Below, piece by piece: positions 863 to 44,376 of a DNA stretch of 64,000 bases. The translations under genes and the position numbers were made by a program. The notes beneath the pieces were generated by a model. That model searched no databases and had not been told where the DNA came from. It saw nothing but the letters and a program-made list of their open reading frames with translations. This DNA is from Dehalococcoidia bacterium (GTDB taxonomy: Bacteria > Chloroflexota > Dehalococcoidia > Plut-88900). Each line of letters opens with the position of its first letter. Positions within the stretch are counted from its first letter, which is position 1. Location of the stretch: the NCBI GenBank assembly GCA_963668115.1, contig OY764147.1:2317761-2381760 (forward strand), in the 5' to 3' direction.

Positions 863-1948
863 ATGACGCAATTCACCGAGACCATAACCTACAACATCGA
901 ATGCCCGAATAAGGACGGGGGGAAGGTAATCAAGGTCGGGGTGAGAAACGGGCATCAGCGTTACCAGTGCAAGAAATGCGGGTCGAAATTCCGAGACCCT
1001 AGCATCGCCAAAGGAAAGCAGTATCCCATCAAGCAGGTGGGTGCGGCTTTGGCGTGGTACTTCGACGGACTCTCATACCGCGAAGTCGCAAGGCAGTTGA
1101 AGAATACCTTTGACATTCCCGAACCGACCGACAACACCATCTACCAGTGGGTACAAGCGTATTCCGACGAAGCCGTAAGGGAGGCAAAGGACGTAAAGGC
1201 TCACACCGGCCCCGTATGGTCGGCTGACGAAACCGACGTGACGATAGACGGCGAGCATTACTGGCTATGGTTCGTCATGGACGATGAAACCCGATACGTT
1301 CTCGCGGCCCTACTCACGCATCGGAGAGACGCCAAAGAGGCCGCTAAGGTCATGCGAATCGCAAAGGACGCCGCCGTTAATCTCCCCATGAGCATCCGCA
1401 CCGACCGGATGAAGTCCTACCCGTCGGCAATCAAGAACGTCTTTGACGGCAAGGTTAAACACGTACAGACGGACGGACTCGCCGCCGTTATCAACAACAA
1501 CCTTGTCGAGCGGCTGAATGGCACGATGAAGGAACGGGACAAGGTTTTCAGGGGATTCAAGCGGCTGGACTCGGCCCAGCAGTACGTTAACGGGTGGGTG
1601 CTGGACTACAACTTTTTCAGGCCGCACATGGCCCTATCGGACGGCAAGGCAACCCCCGCAACTCTCGCCAATGCCAAACCCCCATTCCACAGTTGGGAGG
1701 ATGTGGCCCGGACTGTAGAGGCTGTCGGGAGAGTGCCAAAGGCCACGCGGCCAAAGGAAACGCCGGGCTTCAAGCCGAAGAAGAAGCTAGGGAGACGGCG
1801 CACCAAACCACGCGGGCGGGCGGCTTTGGAACTGGAAAAGCTAGGGCGGCCCATAGGCGACCGCGCACCTAAGAAACGCGAGCGTCGGCCCGTCGCTCAC
1901 TCGGAGCGGCCCACAACCCAAAAGAGCCTAGACACGGGGAAGCGGTAG
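863..1948 (+). CDS. IS6-family DDE transposase with an N-terminal zinc-ribbon
   Basis: N-terminal CPNKDGG...RYQCKKCGSKF zinc ribbon. DDE region WSADETDVTIDGEHYWLWFVMDDETRYVLAALL...TDRMKSYPSAI resembles the IS26/IS240-type motifs DETYVK...YLYRAVD...TDKLxSY. Basic C-terminal tail. Confidence 0.8.
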   Translation: MTQFTETITYNIECPNKDGGKVIKVGVRNGHQRYQCKKCGSKFRDPSIAKGKQYPIKQVGAALAWYFDGLSYREVARQLKNTFDIPEPTDNTIYQWVQAYSDEAVREAKDVKAHTGPVWSADETDVTIDGEHYWLWFVMDDETRYVLAALLTHRRDAKEAAKVMRIAKDAAVNLPMSIRTDRMKSYPSAIKNVFDGKVKHVQTDGLAAVINNNLVERLNGTMKERDKVFRGFKRLDSAQQYVNGWVLDYNFFRPHMALSDGKATPATLANAKPPFHSWEDVARTVEAVGRVPKATRPKETPGFKPKKKLGRRRTKPRGRAALELEKLGRPIGDRAPKKRERRPVAHSERPTTQKSLDTGKR

Positions 1949-13109: not shown

Positions 13110-13877
13110 ATGCTAGACCTATCTGATAGCCACACCCATCTCGAAGACTACGGAGACCAGCTCCCGGATGTCGTCCAGCGCGCCCGGGACGTCGGTGTCA
13201 GGCGCATCATCACCGCAGGCAGCTCCCTCGAATCTTCCAGGGCCGCCGTCCGCATCGCCGACGAGTACCCCGACATCTACGCGGGCGTCGGCATCCACCC
13301 CCACGCCGCCCACCTCAACATCACCGAGGAAACCTTCGAGGAGCTTGCCGGTCTGGCTCAGTCCAGCGAGAAGGTCCTGATGATCTGTGAACCGGGCCTC
13401 GACTACTTCAAAAGCAAGGCCCCGCGAGAGCTCCAGCAGGACGTCTTCCGCCGACACCTCTGCCTTGCCCGGGAGCTGCAACTGCCCGTGGTATTCCACA
13501 GTAGAGAGGCCTACTGGGACTGCCTGCGCATCCTCAAGGAGGAACGAGTCTACGAGGTCGGGGCCATCATGCACTACTTCGTCGCCGACCAGCGTATCGC
13601 CGAGGAGTGCATCGACATGGGAATCTACGTCTCCTTCTCCAAGACCCTGCTCGCCCTCCCCCACCTCCACCCGATAGCCGCGTCCCTGCCCATGGAGTAC
13701 ATGGTCATAGAGACCGATTCCTTCCCCCAGCCCTGGAAAAAGAAGAACCCCCTGGAACCCGCCCAGCTAATCCGCGTCGCTGAAAAAGTCGCGGAGCTAC
13801 GCGGCATCACCGTCGAGGAAGTCGCCGCTCAGACCACGGCCAACCTGAAGTACGTGTTGGGGCCTAAGCTACTATAG
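13110..13877 (+). CDS. tatD: TatD family metal-dependent hydrolase/DNase
   Basis: N-terminal SDSHTHLED; GIHPH; full-length TatD architecture. Confidence 0.85.
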   Translation: MLDLSDSHTHLEDYGDQLPDVVQRARDVGVRRIITAGSSLESSRAAVRIADEYPDIYAGVGIHPHAAHLNITEETFEELAGLAQSSEKVLMICEPGLDYFKSKAPRELQQDVFRRHLCLARELQLPVVFHSREAYWDCLRILKEERVYEVGAIMHYFVADQRIAEECIDMGIYVSFSKTLLALPHLHPIAASLPMEYMVIETDSFPQPWKKKNPLEPAQLIRVAEKVAELRGITVEEVAAQTTANLKYVLGPKLL

Positions 13878-14721
13878 GGGTGTCGTCCCGGTTGGCCCAC
13901 TCACCCATCGAGCCGTCGTAGTTGCTGACGTTTTCGTATCCCAGGAGCCTGAGGGCAAACATCACGTGTGCCGCGCGAATTCCGCCCTGTCAGTAGGTGA
14001 CTACCTTCTTCTCCGGCGTGATCCCCGCCGACGCATAGAGCTCCCTTAGCTCGTCGGGCGGCAGGAAGGTCCTGAACTCGTCGTCGGTGACCGCTTTCGT
14101 CCACTCGATGTGCACGGTGTCCGGCAGGTGCCCGCCCCGCTTGTTCCCCCGGGTCTGCACCCCCGTGTACTCGTCGTCCGTCCGAACGTCCAGCGTGACC
14201 CATCCCGGCTCGTTCAGCCGCTCCTTCAGTTGGTCGAGGGTGCAGTTGTATTCCGGGTGCATGGTCGGGGTGAAGGTGGCTGGCGGGTACGGCGACATCG
14301 GCCTGCCGCTGTGGTACGTCGCCAGGGGTGCAGGCTCCACCGCCCGACCCTCCGCTATCCACTTGTTCCACCCGCCGTTGAGCACCCGAACCTTCTCATG
14401 GCCGTGCATCCGCAGGAGCCACCACAGCCGACCCGCGTACAGCCCGCCCCAGTCGTCGTAGGCTATTACGTCGTGCTGGTCGCCGATGCCTACCTGCCCC
14501 ATCTCCTCGGCGAACTGGTCGGGGCCCATGACCAGCGCCCGGTTGTCGGGGTCCTTGAAGTAGTTGCGGTTCAGTCCCATCGCCCCCGGAATATGCCCCC
14601 TCTTGTACCCGTCGATGGGCCCCATATCCACGATCCTCAGGTTGGGGTCATCTAGGTGCTCTGCCAGCCATTCCGTCTCGACGATGAGGTCCGGTCTGTT
14701 GTGAGTGTTTTGGTTAGCCAT
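13864..14721 (-). CDS. two-domain rhodanese / 3-mercaptopyruvate-type sulfurtransferase. Candidate selenoprotein: the in-frame TGA at + coordinates 13990-13992 coincides with the catalytic Cys position (…EKKVVTY-U-QGGIRAAHVMFALRLLGYENVSNYDGSMGEWANRDDTPIVA).
   Basis: The annotated ORF 13990-14721 stops at TGA immediately before the conserved active-site loop. Reading through in the same frame gives the canonical rhodanese C-terminus (CxGGxRA...LGY.NV.NYDGS..EW) and ends at TAG 13864-13866. An SD (AGGAGAGGAG) precedes the ATG at 14721. Confidence 0.65.
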
Positions 14722-14740
14722 ATCTTGTCCTGCTCCTCTC

Positions 14741-15097
14741 CTAACTCCCCACCGCCCCCTCCAACGCCTCCACGTTGTACCCCAACACCGGCGCCGACCC
14801 CCCGACCACTATCGGTCTCTTCAGTAGCGCCGGCTCCTGCGTCATCAGGTCCAGCTTTTCATCGTCGGAAAGGGCGTCGACATCCAAACCCAGCTTCTTC
14901 ACCGCCCGACTCTTCCGTGAGAATAGCTGCTCCATGGGTATGATCTCCAGCAGACCCTCGATCTCTTCACGGGACAGGGGCTCCTTGAATATATCCCGCT
15001 CTATGTGGTCGATTTCTTTCTGCGAAAGAAACTCCTTCGCCCTTCTGCAGGAAGTTCAGGAGCGTTTCGTGTACAGCGTTATCCCGGTTGCAGCCAT
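14741..15097 (-). CDS. Spx/ArsC-family thiol-redox protein. Candidate selenoprotein (UxxC): the in-frame TGA at + coordinates 15056-15058 replaces the first Cys of the CxxC motif (MAATGITLYTKRS-U-TSCRRAKEFL...).
   Basis: Strong RBS CGAGGAGGAAATC precedes the ATG at 15097. The translation aligns along its whole length with Bacillus Spx (VTLYTSPSCTSCRKA...ERNIFSEPLS...LLRRPII...VGYNEDE), with the TGA at the Cys10 position. The downstream ORF 14741-14935 is the C-terminal remainder in the same frame. Confidence 0.65.
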
Positions 15098-15270
15098 GAT
15101 TTCCTCCTCGCGATTGCGGTAAAGCTTATGGGGCCATTCTACGCGCCGACCCCCTCCCAGTCCACTGTATGTACTGGGATTTGTTTGATTTGATGATGGG
15201 TTTTGACTTTGCAAGGGTGATGTTCATGTCTGATTCGCGATGGGAAGGTGGGATATGATAGGAATGGGCG

Positions 15271-19230: not shown

Positions 19231-19862
19231 CGGCCCACCCTACCCCCGCCCCCCACACCCGTCAACCAATCCCCAAAAACCCGCCCCCAAAAACCCTTGC
19301 TTTCTATTATATTCGTGCTAAACTGTCTGCGGTTCGAACTACTATTCATAATCAAAGGAGGTACACCAACACCCAGGGAAGCCCACCCGACCCCACACGG
19401 GTTCCGTGCCCCTTCCCTAACCCCCAGGCGATGGAAGGTCCATCGACTCTATGCGGCATCAGGCCTCTATATCGACGCCCTTGCCGATACGACGCCCCTC
19501 ACCCGGGCGTATACGCCTCGCCGACTTAACCCCCGCCGAGGAATTCCGCGAGTCTTTCACTCGTTATGCAGGGCCTTAGCGCCCTTATGCGGCTCCACCC
19601 GCCCACGGCGGCTTCGAGCCGATATGCCGTCCCGTTCAGCGGTCGAGCGCTGATGCGGAGGACGGATGTCCCCACGCAGAGACGCCCTCGACACCGGCAA
19701 GTCTCCCAAGGCATGCGTGAAGGGAAAGGCAGGACAACCGCCGATGCTGCCAGCGTCGGCGTAGGTGCCATCGAGATCCTGCATCCGAGTCCCGGACCTC
19801 CATCGCCTACCCAAACCCCACAACCAAACAACCTCTCCCCCACCCTCATCCCCTCCCCTCTC

Positions 19863-20086
19863 CGTAGGGGCGACCGGCTGGGCGCCCTCCCCGGTGTGGG
19901 GTGGGGGGTTCCTTCCCCGTTCCTTAAACAATCAAAGCCGTGCCTGAAATTGCAAAACAATCAAAAACCCACCCCTCGCGCCACGCGAATTCCCCAGAAA
20001 TCCCTTTCAGGCGTCATTCAATCAAAACAGCTACGAGTTCAATCAATCTTCAATCAACGTTCAATCAATGTTCAATCAAAACCCCA
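19863..20086. repeat. left arm of a long imperfect inverted repeat (core about 225 bp at about 90% identity with 25436-25642; weaker similarity extends to about 19700). Contains 5 tandem TTCAATCAA motifs.
   Basis: The reverse complement of 25436-25642 aligns base by base (…ggtgtggggtggggggttccttccccgttccttaaacaatcaaagccgtgcctgaaat…ttcaatcaa…). The shadow ORFs here are shared with those of the right arm. Confidence 0.85.
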
Positions 20087-24296: not shown

Positions 24297-25337
24297 CTAG
24301 CCGCCGATGTGGTACATCTCCACCTTCCTGGCCCGGCTCCCGGCTAACGACGCCCGCTCCTCCGAATAGCGGTCGGCCCTGCGGGCCCAGATACCCTTGA
24401 TAATGTCGGTGAGGTCATCGTCGGTGGCGCCGGCGCGGAGGGGGCCCCGGAGGTCCTGGCCTTTGGAGGCGAAGAGGCAGGTGTAGACCTTCCCCTCCGC
24501 CGAGATGCGGGCACGAGTGCAGTCACCGCAGAAGGGGTTGCTCACCGAGGATATGACACCGATCTCGCCTTCGCCGTCGGCGTAGCGGTAGCGGTCTGCG
24601 ACTTCGCCGCGGTAGCTCTTGTCGACGGGCTCGAGGGGCATCTCCCGGCCAATGAGGTCGATCACCTGCTGCGAGGTGACCACCTGGTCGGACTCCCACT
24701 GATTCAGGTTGCCTACGTCCATGAACTCGATGAAGCGGAGGATGTGACCCATCTCCTTGACCCGACGGGTGAGGTCGACGATGGTGTGCTCGTTGACGCC
24801 CTTCTGGACGACTACGTTGATCTTGATGGGCGTCAGGCCGGCTTCCTCGGCGGCGCGGATGCCTTCCAGCACCCGTCCCGTCCCGAAACCCCGACCGTTC
24901 ATGTGCCCGAATACCTGGTCGTCCAGGGTATGGAGGCTTACCGTGACCCGCTTCAGGCCGGCATCCCGGAGGGTTTGCGCCTTCCTGGCTAGCAGGTAGC
25001 CGTTGGTGGTCAGGGCCAAGTCCTCCAGCCCTTCGATGGAGGCAAGCTGGCCGACCAGGACTTCCAACTGGTCGCGGAGGAGGGGTTCGCCGCCGGTGAG
25101 GCGTATCTTGCGCACGCCGAGGCCGACGAAGAGCCGGGCAACGCGGCTTATCTCCTCGAAGGTGAGGATGTCGTCTTTGGGCAGGAAGCGGTAGCGCTCG
25201 CCGAATATCTCCGCGGGCATGCAGAAGGTGCATCGGAAGTTGCACCTGTCGGTGACGGATATGCGCAGGTCCCTGAGGGGCCTCCCGAAGAGGTCGAGAA
25301 TGGTGTCGGGCCGGTTTGTGGAAGCGTTGGTACTCAT
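24297..25337 (-). CDS. moaA: GTP 3',8-cyclase MoaA (radical SAM molybdenum cofactor biosynthesis)
   Basis: Radical-SAM motif CNFRCTFCMP. C-terminal MoaA cysteines (CGDCTRARISAEGKVYTCLF). Full length. Confidence 0.9.
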   Translation of the reverse strand: MSTNASTNRPDTILDLFGRPLRDLRISVTDRCNFRCTFCMPAEIFGERYRFLPKDDILTFEEISRVARLFVGLGVRKIRLTGGEPLLRDQLEVLVGQLASIEGLEDLALTTNGYLLARKAQTLRDAGLKRVTVSLHTLDDQVFGHMNGRGFGTGRVLEGIRAAEEAGLTPIKINVVVQKGVNEHTIVDLTRRVKEMGHILRFIEFMDVGNLNQWESDQVVTSQQVIDLIGREMPLEPVDKSYRGEVADRYRYADGEGEIGVISSVSNPFCGDCTRARISAEGKVYTCLFASKGQDLRGPLRAGATDDDLTDIIKGIWARRADRYSEERASLAGSRARKVEMYHIGG

Positions 25338-25435
25338 GCGCCGCAGATGGATAGGCCACCCCTCCCGACTTCCATTCTACCCGCGACCCTCGGGGGTGTA
25401 CAAACGAGGGCACCGGTAGGGCCGGTTAGAGGTGC

Positions 25436-25642
25436 AGGGGGTTTTGATTGAACATTGATTGAACTCGTAGCTGTTTTGATTGAACGACGCCTGAAAGGGA
25501 TTTCCGGGGAATTCGCGTGGTGCAGGGGTGTGGGTTTTTGATTGTTTTGCGATTTCAGGCACGGCTTTGATTGTTTAAGGAACGGGGAAGGAACCCCCCA
25601 CCCCACACCGGGGAGGGCGCCCACGAGGGACGCCCCTACGGG
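25436..25642. repeat. right arm of the long inverted repeat (partner of 19863-20086); contains 3 TTCAATCAA motifs (reverse complement). Weaker similarity extends to about 25830.
   Basis: Direct base-by-base match to the reverse complement of the left arm. Confidence 0.85.
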
Positions 25643-26338
25643 GGAGGAAGAGAGAGGGGCCGGGTTGTTGGGTTGGGGGGTTTGGGTTTGCATTTTGTCT
25701 GTCGGGTTTTGGGTTGGCGATGGAAGACGCTTCCGGGACGCTGCCCCGTTCCTGTGCTTCGGGTTATTCGACGCCCCGGGGCAGGGGCGCCGGCCCGCTT
25801 TTGCCGCTGTGCGGCCTCTGGCCCTAAATACGCTGGACTTGGGCAAGGACCGTAAGGGCCAGCAGGTCCGAGCCATACTCCCTGGGGGGTTGGCTGCACC
25901 GCAGAAGGGCGGTATGGAGGCTCTTCCAGCGTCCGATGCAGAGCCTCTCGCAGGCGTAAAGGTTTCCAAGTTTGCCGGTGCGACCCGGGAGTGCGGGGGA
26001 CCACCGGCACCCGGCCTGATTGAGCGGTCGGGTTACCGAGAAGTCCTCGGCGCCGGGTCTATCCGACCGCACTTCCGCTGCAAAGAGCGGCTTCCTCCCG
26101 AGGGAGGCTTCCCCTGAAAGAGGCCGAGAGGGCGTCTTAGAGGGGCTTCACAATGGAACGTAGCGTCCAGGGCGTCTATCCATCGCCTGGGGGTCAGGGA
26201 AGGGGCACGGGACCCGTGTGGGGTCGGGTGGGCTTCCCTGGGTTTTTGGTGTTCCTCCTTAGGTCAGTGAGAATATCTGGTCGACCGTAGGGTATGATAA
26301 CGCCTTTGCTCAGATGTGTCAAGCAAATGTACGGGTTG

Positions 26339-26387
26339 GGAAGGAATTCCCCCGATTCCTCGCGGGGCATAGGGATGACATGGGGGT
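26339..26387. repeat. partial copy of the hairpin-repeat family (shares gattcctcgcggggcat with the copy at 28330-28346)
   Basis: Sequence identity to part of the 28258-28356 element. Confidence 0.5.
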
Positions 26388-26440
26388 TGGGGGTGGGGCT
26401 AGGGAAGGGGGTGTAGTGCTAGGATGCAGGTGATTATTCA

Positions 26441-26510
26441 GGAGGGATGGATTACCACCTCCGTGGGAATGATCCGCCATAGGCGGACAGGCTCCCCTCG
26501 GGGGTGGGGA
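26441..26510. repeat. hairpin-repeat family copy: GGAGGGATGGATTaCCAC-CTCC-GTGGGAAT palindrome, plus CCGCCataGGCGG and CCCCtcGGGG hairpins
   Basis: Three consecutive short palindromes. The same unit recurs at 26564-26724 and 28258-28356. Confidence 0.6.
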
Positions 26511-26563
26511 GGGGGGACGGGGTTGGAGTGACGGAAGATGGGAAGGGTGGGTTGCGGGGTTGT

Positions 26564-26724
26564 GGGTGAGTGTTTCGGAGGGATGGATTCCCACCTCCGT
26601 GGGAATGACGGATTAAAGGGGCGGGAATGATCCGCCATAGGCGGACAGGCTACCCTCGAGGGTGGGGGCCGCCCTGCCCCGCCCCGCGGGATGGATTCCC
26701 GACTACTCGGGAATGACGGAGGGG
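26564..26724. repeat. hairpin-repeat family, compound copy (two GGATGGATTCC-N-GGAATGAC units, with stems CCCAC/GTGGG and CCCGA/TCGGG)
   Basis: The GGGTGAGTGTTTCGGAGGGATGGATTCCCACCTCCGTGGGAATGACGGA core matches 28258-28304 except for compensatory stem changes. Confidence 0.6.
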
Positions 26725-26820
26725 AGGGGATTTTTGGTTGTATGGTGCGTTTAGAATGTACGGGAGGGGGTGATATGGAAATCAGGGGGAGGGAGAGAAG
26801 TGAAGACGGTTATCAGAGAA

Positions 26821-28233
26821 ATGGGGTGGTTGGCCTTGGTGGTGGGGTTGCTGATTGGGGTTGCGGCCTGCGCCTCTGACTTGGAAACACTCGTCTCCGA
26901 TGTCACGCCTAGCCCTTCTACTAGGGATTCGGAGACCGTCACAGCCCACATCACACCCACAATCCATGCCCTGCCGCAGCCTCCATTCTACGGTGCCGGC
27001 ACCCCATCATTGGATGAGCGCATATACGAATCGGATATCGTAGTCAGAGTTTCCTTATCATCCGTCACCGATGATCTATTGAAATTTAAGGCCATTGAAT
27101 ACCTAAAGGGCTCTGGAGCATCCGAGATCAGCGTCCATGCCTCCACCACTGGACGAAATACCTCCTGGGACGGACGGGAAGCGATACTCTTCCTCACCCT
27201 ACCGAAGAGTCAAGGGACAACAGGTTCCTCAGACAGTTCCTCATCACAGTTCATATTCACAGAATCCCAAGCCGTCAAGCACTATAGTGGTAACCTGTCC
27301 GATGGTTATACCATAGATACCCGGAACCCTGCGTGGCTACCTGCGGAATCTGCCTCTGGTACAACAGGGACTAGCGGTGGTAGTCAGACATTTATTACGG
27401 ATACCCAATCTCCCACCGGTGCTCTGTCTCCAGTGATTTCTCTGACGGATCTTCGTTCCAAGATAGCGTGGCAGGAAGTGAAAGAAGGTGTAGCAGGATA
27501 CGAGGATTGCATCTTGGCGCGCCTAGATCACGAGCAATGGTTCCGAAACTGGGAGACCCATTATGGGCGCGCATGGCCTCTTCATCAATTCAATGCGCGA
27601 GTGAATTCAGGAACGGGCAAGGGAGCAGTTATTAAGGCTTCCGGCAATTACAACTTGAATAAGTACTGGAAAGAGTGGTTAACCGGTATGGATGCAGAAC
27701 TCTTCAGCACTCAGGTCGTCGATAACGATGAGAAGCCCGGCAACGGCTTCAGCAGCAATATTACAACCGCCCGTCCTCTGATTGGCGGAACATACAATTA
27801 TATGTTCCACAGACAATGGCCCGAATACATGCCATGCAACTTTGTCTCTCCTCGTCATCGTCTAGCGTTAATAGTCACCGTCACTGCTCCGACGGGGACT
27901 GTTCACGAAGCCTTCTTCGATCCTGCCTCCACCTCCCTAGGGGTGGGTTTCCGGGGAAGTCAAGGCACACTCTCTCCCGCCTCCTTCACTCACGGGGACG
28001 TCTCATCCTCCATCGTCGGACTCGGGTGGGAGAATGGCAAGGTCATGCTTGCCCTTTCGCCCTACGTGTCCCTTGCGGGCAAGACCTTGGACTTCATCGA
28101 ACTGGATGGGACGGTGGGCCTTAGCCTGAGGTTCGACGATGGTGTGTCGGATGGGGAGTCGGGGACGGTTGTGTGGAAGGTGGATGAGCGGCCGTGGGAG
28201 TCGGGGGATGAGTTGATGATTCGGATTAGGTAG
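26821..28233 (+). CDS. hypothetical lipoprotein. Probable start at M18 of ORF 26770-28233; the gene is AT-richer than its surroundings.
   Basis: Signal peptide with LIGVAAC lipobox. The composition is Ser/Thr/Gly-rich and protein-like. I recognise no functional motif. Confidence 0.5.
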   Translation: MGWLALVVGLLIGVAACASDLETLVSDVTPSPSTRDSETVTAHITPTIHALPQPPFYGAGTPSLDERIYESDIVVRVSLSSVTDDLLKFKAIEYLKGSGASEISVHASTTGRNTSWDGREAILFLTLPKSQGTTGSSDSSSSQFIFTESQAVKHYSGNLSDGYTIDTRNPAWLPAESASGTTGTSGGSQTFITDTQSPTGALSPVISLTDLRSKIAWQEVKEGVAGYEDCILARLDHEQWFRNWETHYGRAWPLHQFNARVNSGTGKGAVIKASGNYNLNKYWKEWLTGMDAELFSTQVVDNDEKPGNGFSSNITTARPLIGGTYNYMFHRQWPEYMPCNFVSPRHRLALIVTVTAPTGTVHEAFFDPASTSLGVGFRGSQGTLSPASFTHGDVSSSIVGLGWENGKVMLALSPYVSLAGKTLDFIELDGTVGLSLRFDDGVSDGESGTVVWKVDERPWESGDELMIRIR

Positions 28234-28257
28234 GGGGAGAGGTGAGTTGTGGGGATG

Positions 28258-28356
28258 GGGGTGAGTGTTTCGGAAGGATGGATTCCTGCCTCCGCAGGAA
28301 TGACGGAGTGGTCGGGGGTGGGGCGCTGGAGATTCCTCGCGGGGCATCGGAACGGG
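28258..28356. repeat. hairpin-repeat family copy immediately downstream of the lipoprotein gene (stem variant CCTGC/GCAGG)
   Basis: GGTGAGTGTTTCGGAAGGATGGATTCCTGCCTCCGCAGGAATGACGGAG. Both stem arms changed together relative to the 26580 copy. Confidence 0.6.
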
Positions 28357-28520
28357 AAGAGAGGGGCGTCGGGAAGGGGAGGAAGGAGTGGAGGGATGTC
28401 ATGCTTGCATGTGAGCGAAGTCTGTGGGGCTGTGTGTCAATGGGAGGAAGTGAAGCAGGGCCGTTCGGAAGGCATTTGACAGGGTCAAGCCGGTAAAATT
28501 ATATTGGGCATACATCTCTC

Positions 28521-29075
28521 TTGGAGAGTGCCGAACTGCGCCTCCTCCTCGTCTCGTTAGCTCTTGCCTTCATCCTGGCTTGCCTCGGTTGCCGCGACGC
28601 GGGCTCTTTGGAGATATCTCTGCCTTCACCCACTGCGCCTTCGGAGATAGTCGTTTACGTTACGGGGGAGGTGGTCAGCCCGGGGCTGTACACCCTTCCC
28701 CCGGGTCAGAGACGCCTTATAGAAGCGGTTGATACGGCGGGCGGCTTTACGGAAAATGCCGACCGGGCCAGCGTGAACGGCGCCCTGGTCATCTACGACC
28801 AGGAACATATCCACGTCCTCCCCCTGCCCCTTGCGCCCGACTCGTCCTCGGCCGGTTCGCAGCTGGGAACTACCTCCGGCGGGCTTATCGACCTTAACTC
28901 CGCCTCTTTCGAGGAGCTTCAGACGTTGCCGGGCGTAGGGCCGACAACGGCGGAGTCGATCATAGAGCACCGGCTGGCCAACGGCCCCTTCACGCGAGTC
29001 GAAGACCTAGTCGAGGTCGCAGGGATAGGGGAGAAGACTTTCGAATCGCTCCAGCACCTGATAACGGTGCGTTGA
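28521..29075 (+). CDS. comEA: competence protein ComEA (helix-hairpin-helix DNA-binding), TTG start
   Basis: C-terminal LIDLNSASFEELQTLPGVGPTTAESIIEHRLANGPFTRVEDLVEVAGIGEKTFESL HhH tandem motif. N-terminal membrane anchor. Confidence 0.8.
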   Translation: MESAELRLLLVSLALAFILACLGCRDAGSLEISLPSPTAPSEIVVYVTGEVVSPGLYTLPPGQRRLIEAVDTAGGFTENADRASVNGALVIYDQEHIHVLPLPLAPDSSSAGSQLGTTSGGLIDLNSASFEELQTLPGVGPTTAESIIEHRLANGPFTRVEDLVEVAGIGEKTFESLQHLITVR

Positions 29076-40952: not shown

Positions 40953-44090
<3,138 letters not shown>

Positions 44091-44138
44091 TGCATTAAGA
44101 CACGCACAGAACGTTCAACTTCTCTATTCGGCACATGG

Positions 44139-44301: not shown

Positions 44302-44376
44302 CGCGGGGTGGAGCAGTGGCAGCTCGTCGGGCTCATAACCCGAAGGTCGTTGGTTCGAATCCAACCCCCGCTACCA
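44302..44376 (+). tRNA. initiator tRNA-Met (CAU anticodon)
   Basis: CGCGGGGTGGAGCAG…TCGGGCTCATAACCCGAAGG…GGTTCGAATCCAACCCCCGCTACCA. Matches the E. coli tRNA-fMet layout, including the three G:C pairs in the anticodon stem and an encoded CCA. Confidence 0.85.

Follow-up and report, generated by a model that had tools for sequence, protein, structure and literature searches.

A probable selenocysteine-containing rhodanese and its Spx/ArsC-like neighbour in Dehalococcoidia

The rhodanese gene and its in-frame UGA codon

The DNA considered here, referred to throughout as the window, is a stretch of 64,000 nucleotides from a Dehalococcoidia bacterium (assembly GCA_963668115.1, contig OY764147.1, positions 2,317,761 to 2,381,760), and the gene in question encodes a two-domain rhodanese on its minus strand. 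Its reading frame contains a TGA codon, which is placed at the position of the catalytic cysteine and is followed by conserved coding sequence, and which is predicted to be decoded as selenocysteine (Sec). The gene, its codon, its tail and the gene that converges on it are as follows.

13864..14721, minus strand: full-length coding sequence of the two-domain rhodanese, 285 codons including the predicted Sec244, and TAG (from translation, PF00581 and alignment with PDB entries)
13990..13992, minus strand: in-frame UGA, codon 244, predicted Sec at the catalytic Cys position (U-Q-G-G-I-R; from the PDB alignment and related loci)
13864..13989, minus strand: tail after the UGA, 41 sense codons and TAG, with which the active-site loop is completed and the catalytic rhodanese domain gains its C-terminal helices
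13110..13877, plus strand: convergent tatD-family gene (PF01026 TatD_DNase, E 6e-63; from the list of open reading frames)

The rhodanese gene starts with an ATG at 14721-14719 and reaches the TGA at 13992-13990 after 243 codons, beyond which the tail, QGGIRAAHVMFALRLLGYENVSNYDGSMGEWANRDDTPIVA, continues in the same frame to a TAG at 13866-13864. The end of this tail overlaps the last 14 bp of the tatD gene (13864-13877), and the C-terminal peptides predicted from it are LLGYENVSNYDGSMGEWANR. An earlier note on this DNA had described just such a layout, with an open reading frame (ORF) that is closed at the TGA, 41 codons that run on to the TAG and an end that lies inside tatD, and every coordinate in that description holds. 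A 41-codon open frame is unremarkable by itself, and it is the homology across the TGA that raises it above chance. The Pfam family PF00581 (Rhodanese) matches the joined protein in two stretches (E 5e-38), and the second domain, which covers residues 161-277, crosses the TGA, as the earlier note had proposed to check with a rhodanese profile. The 41-residue tail alone is 73% identical to the full-length Cys-containing homologue P0014 (E 4e-20), in a match that begins one residue past the cysteine of that homologue. No frameshift is present between the TGA and the conserved block downstream of it.

Alignment of the joined protein with two-domain rhodaneses of solved structure runs end to end over residues 9-283, with E-values from 4e-46 (1uar) to 2e-32. 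Codon 244 falls in the column of the active-site cysteine of 1uar, 3hwi and 3aax (…vvyCRiaeRs… in 1uar as against …vtyUqggiRa… here). Within its local context, …VVTY-U-QGGIRAA…, the TGA represents the nucleophile, with which the active-site loop of six residues in the C-terminal domain begins. The earlier note had located the entire active site after the TGA, and this needs some refinement: the remainder of the loop and the C-terminal helices are indeed found there, but the TGA codon itself occupies the catalytic residue and is not a stop that merely precedes the catalytic loop.

The same two-domain architecture is seen in the Cys-containing tandem rhodaneses of Thermus thermophilus (1UAR), Mycobacterium (the thiosulfate sulfurtransferases 3HWI and 3AAX), Azotobacter (RhdA, 1E0C), cattle (bovine 1RHD) and Escherichia coli (SseA, 1URH), although the nucleophile is a cysteine in these proteins and a predicted Sec in the window. 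The loop of 1UAR, C-R-I-A-E-R, and that of the window protein, U-Q-G-G-I-R, both have the nucleophile first and an arginine at +5, an arrangement that is thiosulfate-sulfurtransferase-like. The classical motifs, which Bordo and Bork are said to have set out in 2002 as CRKGVT for thiosulfate sulfurtransferases and CG(S/T)GVT for mercaptopyruvate sulfurtransferases, are both different from the QGGIR of the window loop. The NCBIfam equivalog model for the 3-mercaptopyruvate sulfurtransferase SseA (NF008557) gives 128.8 bits, which is under its cut-off of 250, and, judged by its sequence, the window protein shares superfamily and architecture with SseA but is not an SseA equivalog.

Conservation of the codon and the hairpin that follows it

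A protein search returned 1099 homologues of the window rhodanese. The 13 closest of these (58-93% identity) have been called at 242-243 amino acids, unless a contig end or a frameshift cuts them, and their last residues are …(V/A)(T/V)Y; from 54% identity downward, the homologues are 270-280 amino acids long and read …TYCQGG(I/V)RAAH…. The form truncated at the TGA can be found in public records such as MEE9249358.1 and MFQ5873823.1, and an exact look-up found no public record of the window's own 243-residue product.

Genomic DNA was compared for 80 related loci, with one representative genome per species. A TGA at this codon, together with an open and conserved frame after it, is found in 29 of them (L001-L014, L017-L019, L023, L026, L027, L029, L032-L034, L039, L041, L043, L056 and L067), whose proteins have 42-91% identity to that of the window. 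Almost all of these loci come from metagenome-assembled genomes (MAGs) of Dehalococcoidia/Chloroflexota, the others being a MAG of Binatia and one with the label Aquabacterium. In sister loci, at least 14 in number, this column is occupied by TGC or TGT. A neighbour-joining tree groups the TGA forms in a single large subfamily, within which two Cys forms are nested and which is separate from an all-Cys clade. The nested pair, L031 and L035, both have TGC within a subfamily that is otherwise all-Sec, and their placement suggests Sec-to-Cys reversions.

Over the 39 codons past the TGA, the ratio of non-synonymous to synonymous substitution rates (dN/dS) is 0-0.17 in comparison with 18 loci, and the tail differs from that of L002 by 14 synonymous and no non-synonymous changes. 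Such low ratios imply that the tail is translated. With the TGA kept in so many loci, a tail under purifying selection and Cys codons in the sister loci, the claim of the earlier note that the gene has been mis-called as truncated is well founded. Moreover, none of the orthologues genuinely ends before the active-site loop, as all of the 'short' proteins in the databases are TGA truncations.

A different kind of TGA is found in L073, a rhodanese locus from a Gammaproteobacteria MAG, where, at about 600-700, the codon lies inside the loop (CGG*VAAS, in comparison with CGGG(I/V)AAS in its relatives). As it replaces a Gly codon and not a Cys codon, it is probably an error or a sign of a pseudogene.

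The nucleotides directly after the UGA of the rhodanese gene can fold into a hairpin, which resembles the selenocysteine insertion sequence (SECIS) of bacteria.

13952..13988, minus strand: putative bacterial SECIS, window variant (from its fold, clade covariation, RNAalifold and synonymous constraint)

Across the 30 Sec-type sequences, that is the 29 loci and the window (alignment A2), the clade consensus is a hairpin of 17 nt, formed of 7 bp and a 3-nt loop, which begins 10 nt past the UGA and keeps a fixed register. The loop, 17 nt past the UGA, is GGC, or GUC in one clade, and 95.1% of cells are paired. Compensatory double changes have occurred at two stem pairs, one being CG in 14, AU in 10 and GC in 3 sequences and the other GC in 26 and UA in 3. 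The covariation score of 0.22 compares with 0.054 in shuffles and was attained by none of 500 shuffled alignments, and sliding the 3' arm by 1-3 columns causes the pairing to fall to 15-68%. One of the covarying pairs is formed between the third, synonymous position of an Ile/Val codon and the second position of the Val/Gly/Ala codon that comes five codons further on. RNAalifold also recovered the lower stem, so that both stems were found. The constraint is visible in the codons themselves: synonymous-codon identity in the non-redundant Sec set is 0.49 gene-wide and reaches 0.75-0.81 in six-codon segments that start 3 and 6 codons past the UGA, in contrast to 0.32-0.40 for the same codons in Cys-type genes, and the constraint is therefore confined to the Sec loci.

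The element of the window has an 8-bp lower stem (13988-13981 with 13959-13952) and a 5-bp upper stem (13978-13974 with 13966-13962), which are capped by a 7-nt loop, CGGCACA (13973-13967), 16 nt past the UGA. The 43-nt element on its own folds with -18.1 kcal/mol (z -2.74, with 3 of 200 shuffles equally good); when first folded with long flanks, the hairpin had given an unimpressive z of -1.18. The window and L003 (3727-3780) share three substitutions, CGU>CGC, GCG>GCA and GUA>GUG, with which the consensus stem is broken and the hairpin is shifted by one register, and this looks like compensatory evolution toward a new register.

Both the consensus hairpin and that of the window have a G in the loop and an apical loop 16-37 nt from the UGA, features that Zhang and Gladyshev reportedly used in bSECISearch-type criteria. 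The closest point of reference is the SECIS of E. coli fdhF, which likewise is a hairpin within the ORF right after the UGA, with a spacing that Liu et al. (1998) are said to have put at 11 nt; the clade consensus, with its 17 nt and its G in the apical loop, starts about 10-11 nt on. The two are nonetheless unrelated in sequence, and the clade hairpin has no bulged U and a loop of GGC, or CGGCACA in the window variant. The minimal SECIS of E. coli is a 17-nt upper stem-loop to which SelB binds (PMC11431864). On the grounds of size and placement, the hairpin of the clade and the window can be regarded as a putative SECIS, and recruitment of SelB by it would be expected.

In some of the Cys-type loci (L028, L037 and L038), the corresponding VRAAH codons form a hairpin of 6 bp as well, GUGCGC/GCGCAC. 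The intrinsic self-complementarity of these GC-rich codons might ease a switch from Cys to Sec, or it might be a relic of such switching.

The upstream Spx/ArsC-like gene and the rest of the window

Upstream of the rhodanese gene, on the same strand, there is a second gene with an in-frame TGA.

14741..15097, minus strand: Spx/ArsC-family thioredoxin-fold gene, 118 codons including the predicted Sec14 (from translation, PF03960 and TIGR01617)
15056..15058, minus strand: in-frame UGA, codon 14, predicted Sec in place of the first Cys of a CxxC-type motif (TGA in 11 of 11 syntenic loci)
15022..15040, minus strand: putative SECIS of the Spx/ArsC-like gene, an 8-bp hairpin GCGAAGGA-GUU-UCUUUCGC (from conservation in RNAalifold)

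The gene has a Shine-Dalgarno sequence, GAGGAGG, ahead of its ATG, and its reading frame is MAATGITLYTKRS-TGA-TSCRRAKEFL…, which the ORF callers split into pieces of 52 and 64 amino acids. The ArsC family PF03960 matches the joined protein over residues 9-113, across the TGA (E 5e-19), and the model for the Spx/MgsR subfamily, TIGR01617, gives 90.4 bits, which is over its cut-off of 75.05. The TGA stands for the first Cys of the CxxC-type motif, which thereby becomes U-T-S-C. Only 19 nt separate the stop of this gene from the ATG of the rhodanese gene, and the two probably form one operon. In L001-L011 the same gene lies directly upstream of the Sec-rhodanese, with the TGA kept and 58-95% identity.

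The hairpin of the Spx/ArsC-like gene has its loop 23 nt past the UGA, and, according to RNAalifold, each of its 8 pairs is preserved in 11 or in all 12 of the sequences. The only variation is between GU and AU at one pair, with no compensatory double change, so its support is one of conservation. A first fold of the site with long flanks gave a z of -0.69.

Selenoproteins of this general type have been described. An 'Arsenate reductase 2' (cd03032, UxxC) was represented by 42 sequences in the GOS data (PMC2398784), and NF041106 (ArsC_rel_Se_1) is a curated model for an ArsC-related selenoprotein (PMC13188914). The protein of the window resembles the UxxC proteins in that it belongs to PF03960, in the Spx/MgsR subfamily, and has U-T-S-C where the Spx type has CxxC, but it scores only 34.1 bits with NF041106, which has a cut-off of 85, and is not part of that curated model. 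The available portions of the published descriptions of these ArsC-like selenoproteins contain no mention of a pairing with a Sec-rhodanese gene.

A brute-force scan of TGA-joined ORFs for other selenoprotein candidates in the window was noisy, and the remaining cases with a high GC content at third codon positions (GC3) were same-frame gene boundaries or antisense frames, which were rejected. Only at the rhodanese and ArsC-like sites are both sides of the TGA coding-like in their GC3 and joined by continuity of a domain.

Several other features of the window are of some interest. Close to its start there is an insertion sequence (IS)-type transposase gene with DDE_Tnp_IS240/rve domains (863-1948, plus strand). 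Two inverted repeats of about 700 bp (19368-20057 and 25444-26246), which are 89-98% complementary, flank a 5.4-kb segment that holds two paralogous thiolase-like genes (with a 300-nt direct repeat of 90%), a gene for a LON substrate-binding domain, a gene for an EVE domain and moaA; this segment could be invertible or mobile. A region of about 3 kb at 25337-28521 has no confident gene; a 40-70-nt repeat that encloses a palindrome, GGATTCCCACCTCCGTGGGAATGA, recurs in it several times, especially at 26404-26729 and 28235-28316, resembling repetitive extragenic palindromic (REP) elements or miniature inverted-repeat transposable elements (MITEs). A 23S rRNA gene (40954-44092, plus strand) has EamA transporter genes upstream and no 16S rRNA gene before it, with no 5S rRNA gene detected after it, and is followed by a tRNA-Met at 44302-44376, in what looks like an unlinked rRNA arrangement.

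Decoding of the UGA codon and its significance

The occurrence of Cys in sister genes where the window has TGA, the purifying selection on the tail, the SECIS-like hairpin and the presence of a second TGA-containing gene next door, in a window where TGA otherwise acts as a normal stop, together lead to the reading of this UGA as Sec. It is thus very probable that the window gene encodes a Sec-rhodanese of 285 residues, with Sec at codon 244, that is decoded with the help of SelB and a SECIS. The earlier note had proposed readthrough of the TGA, to be tested as U, and this idea stands in a sharper form, in which the probable mechanism is SECIS-directed insertion of Sec and not generic readthrough.

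In mechanistic terms, the stem-loop in the mRNA right after the UGA (about 13988-13952) would recruit the SelB·GTP·Sec-tRNASec complex to the ribosome, where the UGA at 13992-13990 would be decoded as Sec and the remaining 41 codons would then be translated. The tail would complete the active-site loop and contribute the C-terminal helices. By analogy with the Cys-containing rhodaneses, the sulfur that is transferred may be held on Sec244 as a selenopersulfide (Se-S), which would take the place of the cysteine persulfide.

The machinery required for Sec insertion is likely to be encoded elsewhere in the genome. In L014, a contig of the Binatia MAG, ARAGORN finds a tRNA-Sec with the anticodon TCA (1725-1816, plus strand) that lies 1.2 kb upstream of a TGA-type rhodanese orthologue, which itself carries the consensus hairpin, and the Rfam family RF01852 matches this tRNA with 73.8 bits, in comparison with a gathering score of 47. 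No sel genes are found among the neighbours of this tRNA gene, which are MaoC-like, SPOR, PAC2 and MoxR AAA genes. BSepDB lists 46-49 selenoproteins for Dehalococcoidia MAGs, which places them with the bacteria richest in such proteins, and one of these MAGs bears the same UUID-style (universally unique identifier) naming as L001-L011 (PMC13326102). The Sec trait is thereby supported indirectly, through the tRNA-Sec of L014 and the MAGs of BSepDB, and the source genome presumably encodes selA, selB, selC and selD.

A number of observations weigh against the decoding as Sec. Pfam searches of about 45 genes, tRNA scans and Rfam found no selA, selB, selD or tRNA-Sec in the 64-kb window, the tRNA scans giving a tRNA-Met only. 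Rfam also detected no SECIS or other family near either TGA, both at the gathering threshold over the whole window and at E ≤ 10 over 13800-15200. In the hairpin of the window, which is common to L003, three of the consensus pairs of the clade are lost, and it can be drawn only in its register-shifted form. Folding energy, too, separates the Sec loci from the Cys loci weakly (Mann-Whitney p = 0.04), a consequence of the GC-rich (V/I)RAAH codons, which are complementary to one another in certain Cys genes as well (L028, L037 and L038), and because it discriminates so poorly the tests of covariation and of synonymous sites were used instead.

It is also conceivable, if improbable, that recoding of the UGA yields the full-length enzyme with a residue other than Sec, either Cys, through a Cys-charged tRNA-Sec-like tRNA and SelB, or Trp, Cys or Gly, through near-cognate readthrough. 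The conserved TGA, the translated tail and the hairpin reveal recoding and not the identity of the residue inserted, and SelB-dependent recoding of UGA to Cys reportedly takes place in some bacteria, according to Mukai et al. However, genuine selenoproteins are normally recognised by just such a TGA at the specific position of a redox-active Cys, together with Cys in the homologues and a SECIS-like hairpin, and both the rhodanese family and that of its neighbour are catalogued as such. Furthermore, the tRNA that adjoins the TGA-type orthologue in L014 is a bona fide tRNA-Sec, and the use of TGA for Cys would offer no obvious gain over TGC, yet TGA has been kept across deep divergence.

A more radical possibility is that the gene is a pseudogene, or that it encodes a genuine 243-residue protein, after a nonsense mutation from TGC to TGA that removed the active site. 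The products of 242-243 amino acids given by gene callers and public records are in keeping with this, as is the fact that no Sec machinery is seen in the window. Nevertheless, the identical TGA recurs in 29 independent loci whose identity goes down to 42%, the 41 codons that follow are open and evolve under the low dN/dS given above, the truncated product would have neither the catalytic residue nor the active-site loop nor the C-terminal helices, and the adjacent gene has the same pattern. The comparative data effectively refute this explanation, which is very improbable. It is scarcely credible that the TGA stands where TGC or TGT should be through a mistake in sequencing or assembly, even if one base change is enough to turn TGC into TGA, as the codon recurs in 29 assemblies that are independent of one another and include many long-read chromosomes. 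The same judgement extends to an alternative genetic code, such as codes 4 or 25, in which TGA would be a sense codon everywhere. TGA terminates 13 of the 49 confident, well-supported genes of the window, at positions that fit the ends of their Pfam domains, which argues against any genome-wide reassignment, and the GC content of the genome, about 60% (60.4% in the window), is unlike that of organisms that use codes 4 or 25.

If the UGA codons of both genes are indeed decoded as Sec, the two proteins may work together. One rather doubtful proposal is that they are a dedicated, co-transcribed pair of selenoproteins that forms an all-selenium persulfide relay in one clade of Dehalococcoidia (L001-L011 and the window), with SECIS elements that are still evolving, as the register-shifted variant of the window and L003 would indicate. 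Here the rhodanese would hold sulfur or selenium on Sec244 in the form of an Se-S or Se-Se adduct, which its UxxC partner with the thioredoxin fold would either accept or release reductively.

The Sec-rhodanese of the window, as it is predicted here, belongs to a selenoprotein family that has been known since 2005 and that gene callers routinely truncate, and it involves no new mechanism. In 2005, data from the Sargasso Sea yielded a new selenoprotein family named 'Rhodanese-related sulfurtransferase, COG2897', which comprised 3 sequences and for which a SECIS was predicted (PMC1088965), and in the GOS report of 2008 the family appears again with 1 sequence (PMC2398784). The family, with AACY01016424 and MCY3690685.1 as published representatives, is defined as 'form 4' by PF00581 and a Sec in U-x-x-G at the active site (PMC13188914, PMC1088965). 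Judged by domain, architecture and motif, the window gene agrees with it in these defining features: it is a PF00581 protein of the tandem SseA type, it has a UGA at the catalytic Cys, within U-x-x-G (here U-Q-G-G), a bacterial SECIS is predicted just downstream and Cys homologues are widespread. The difference is one of scale and of context, since the published counts are tiny (3 and 1), whereas 30 loci, including the window, are described here and the gene is paired with that for a second selenoprotein. A modest novelty lies in how broad the Sec-rhodanese subfamily is among Dehalococcoidia, in the clearly covarying SECIS with its register-shifted variant and in the conserved, operon-like pairing with a UxxC selenoprotein.

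The most immediate consequence is for annotation. The rhodanese gene and dozens of its orthologues in the databases are recorded as proteins of 242-243 amino acids that have no catalytic residue, and the Spx/ArsC-like neighbour is split or missed. The corrected annotation, which is drawn from sequence comparison, would restore a functional sulfurtransferase and a redox protein and mark the organism as a user of selenocysteine. It adds to the evidence for selenoprotein-rich marine and host-associated Dehalococcoidia. The Sec-containing COG2897 rhodanese, known hitherto from a handful of metagenomic reads, emerges as a sizeable subfamily with a well-defined SECIS, and the conserved pair of selenoprotein genes offers a partnership that can be tested.

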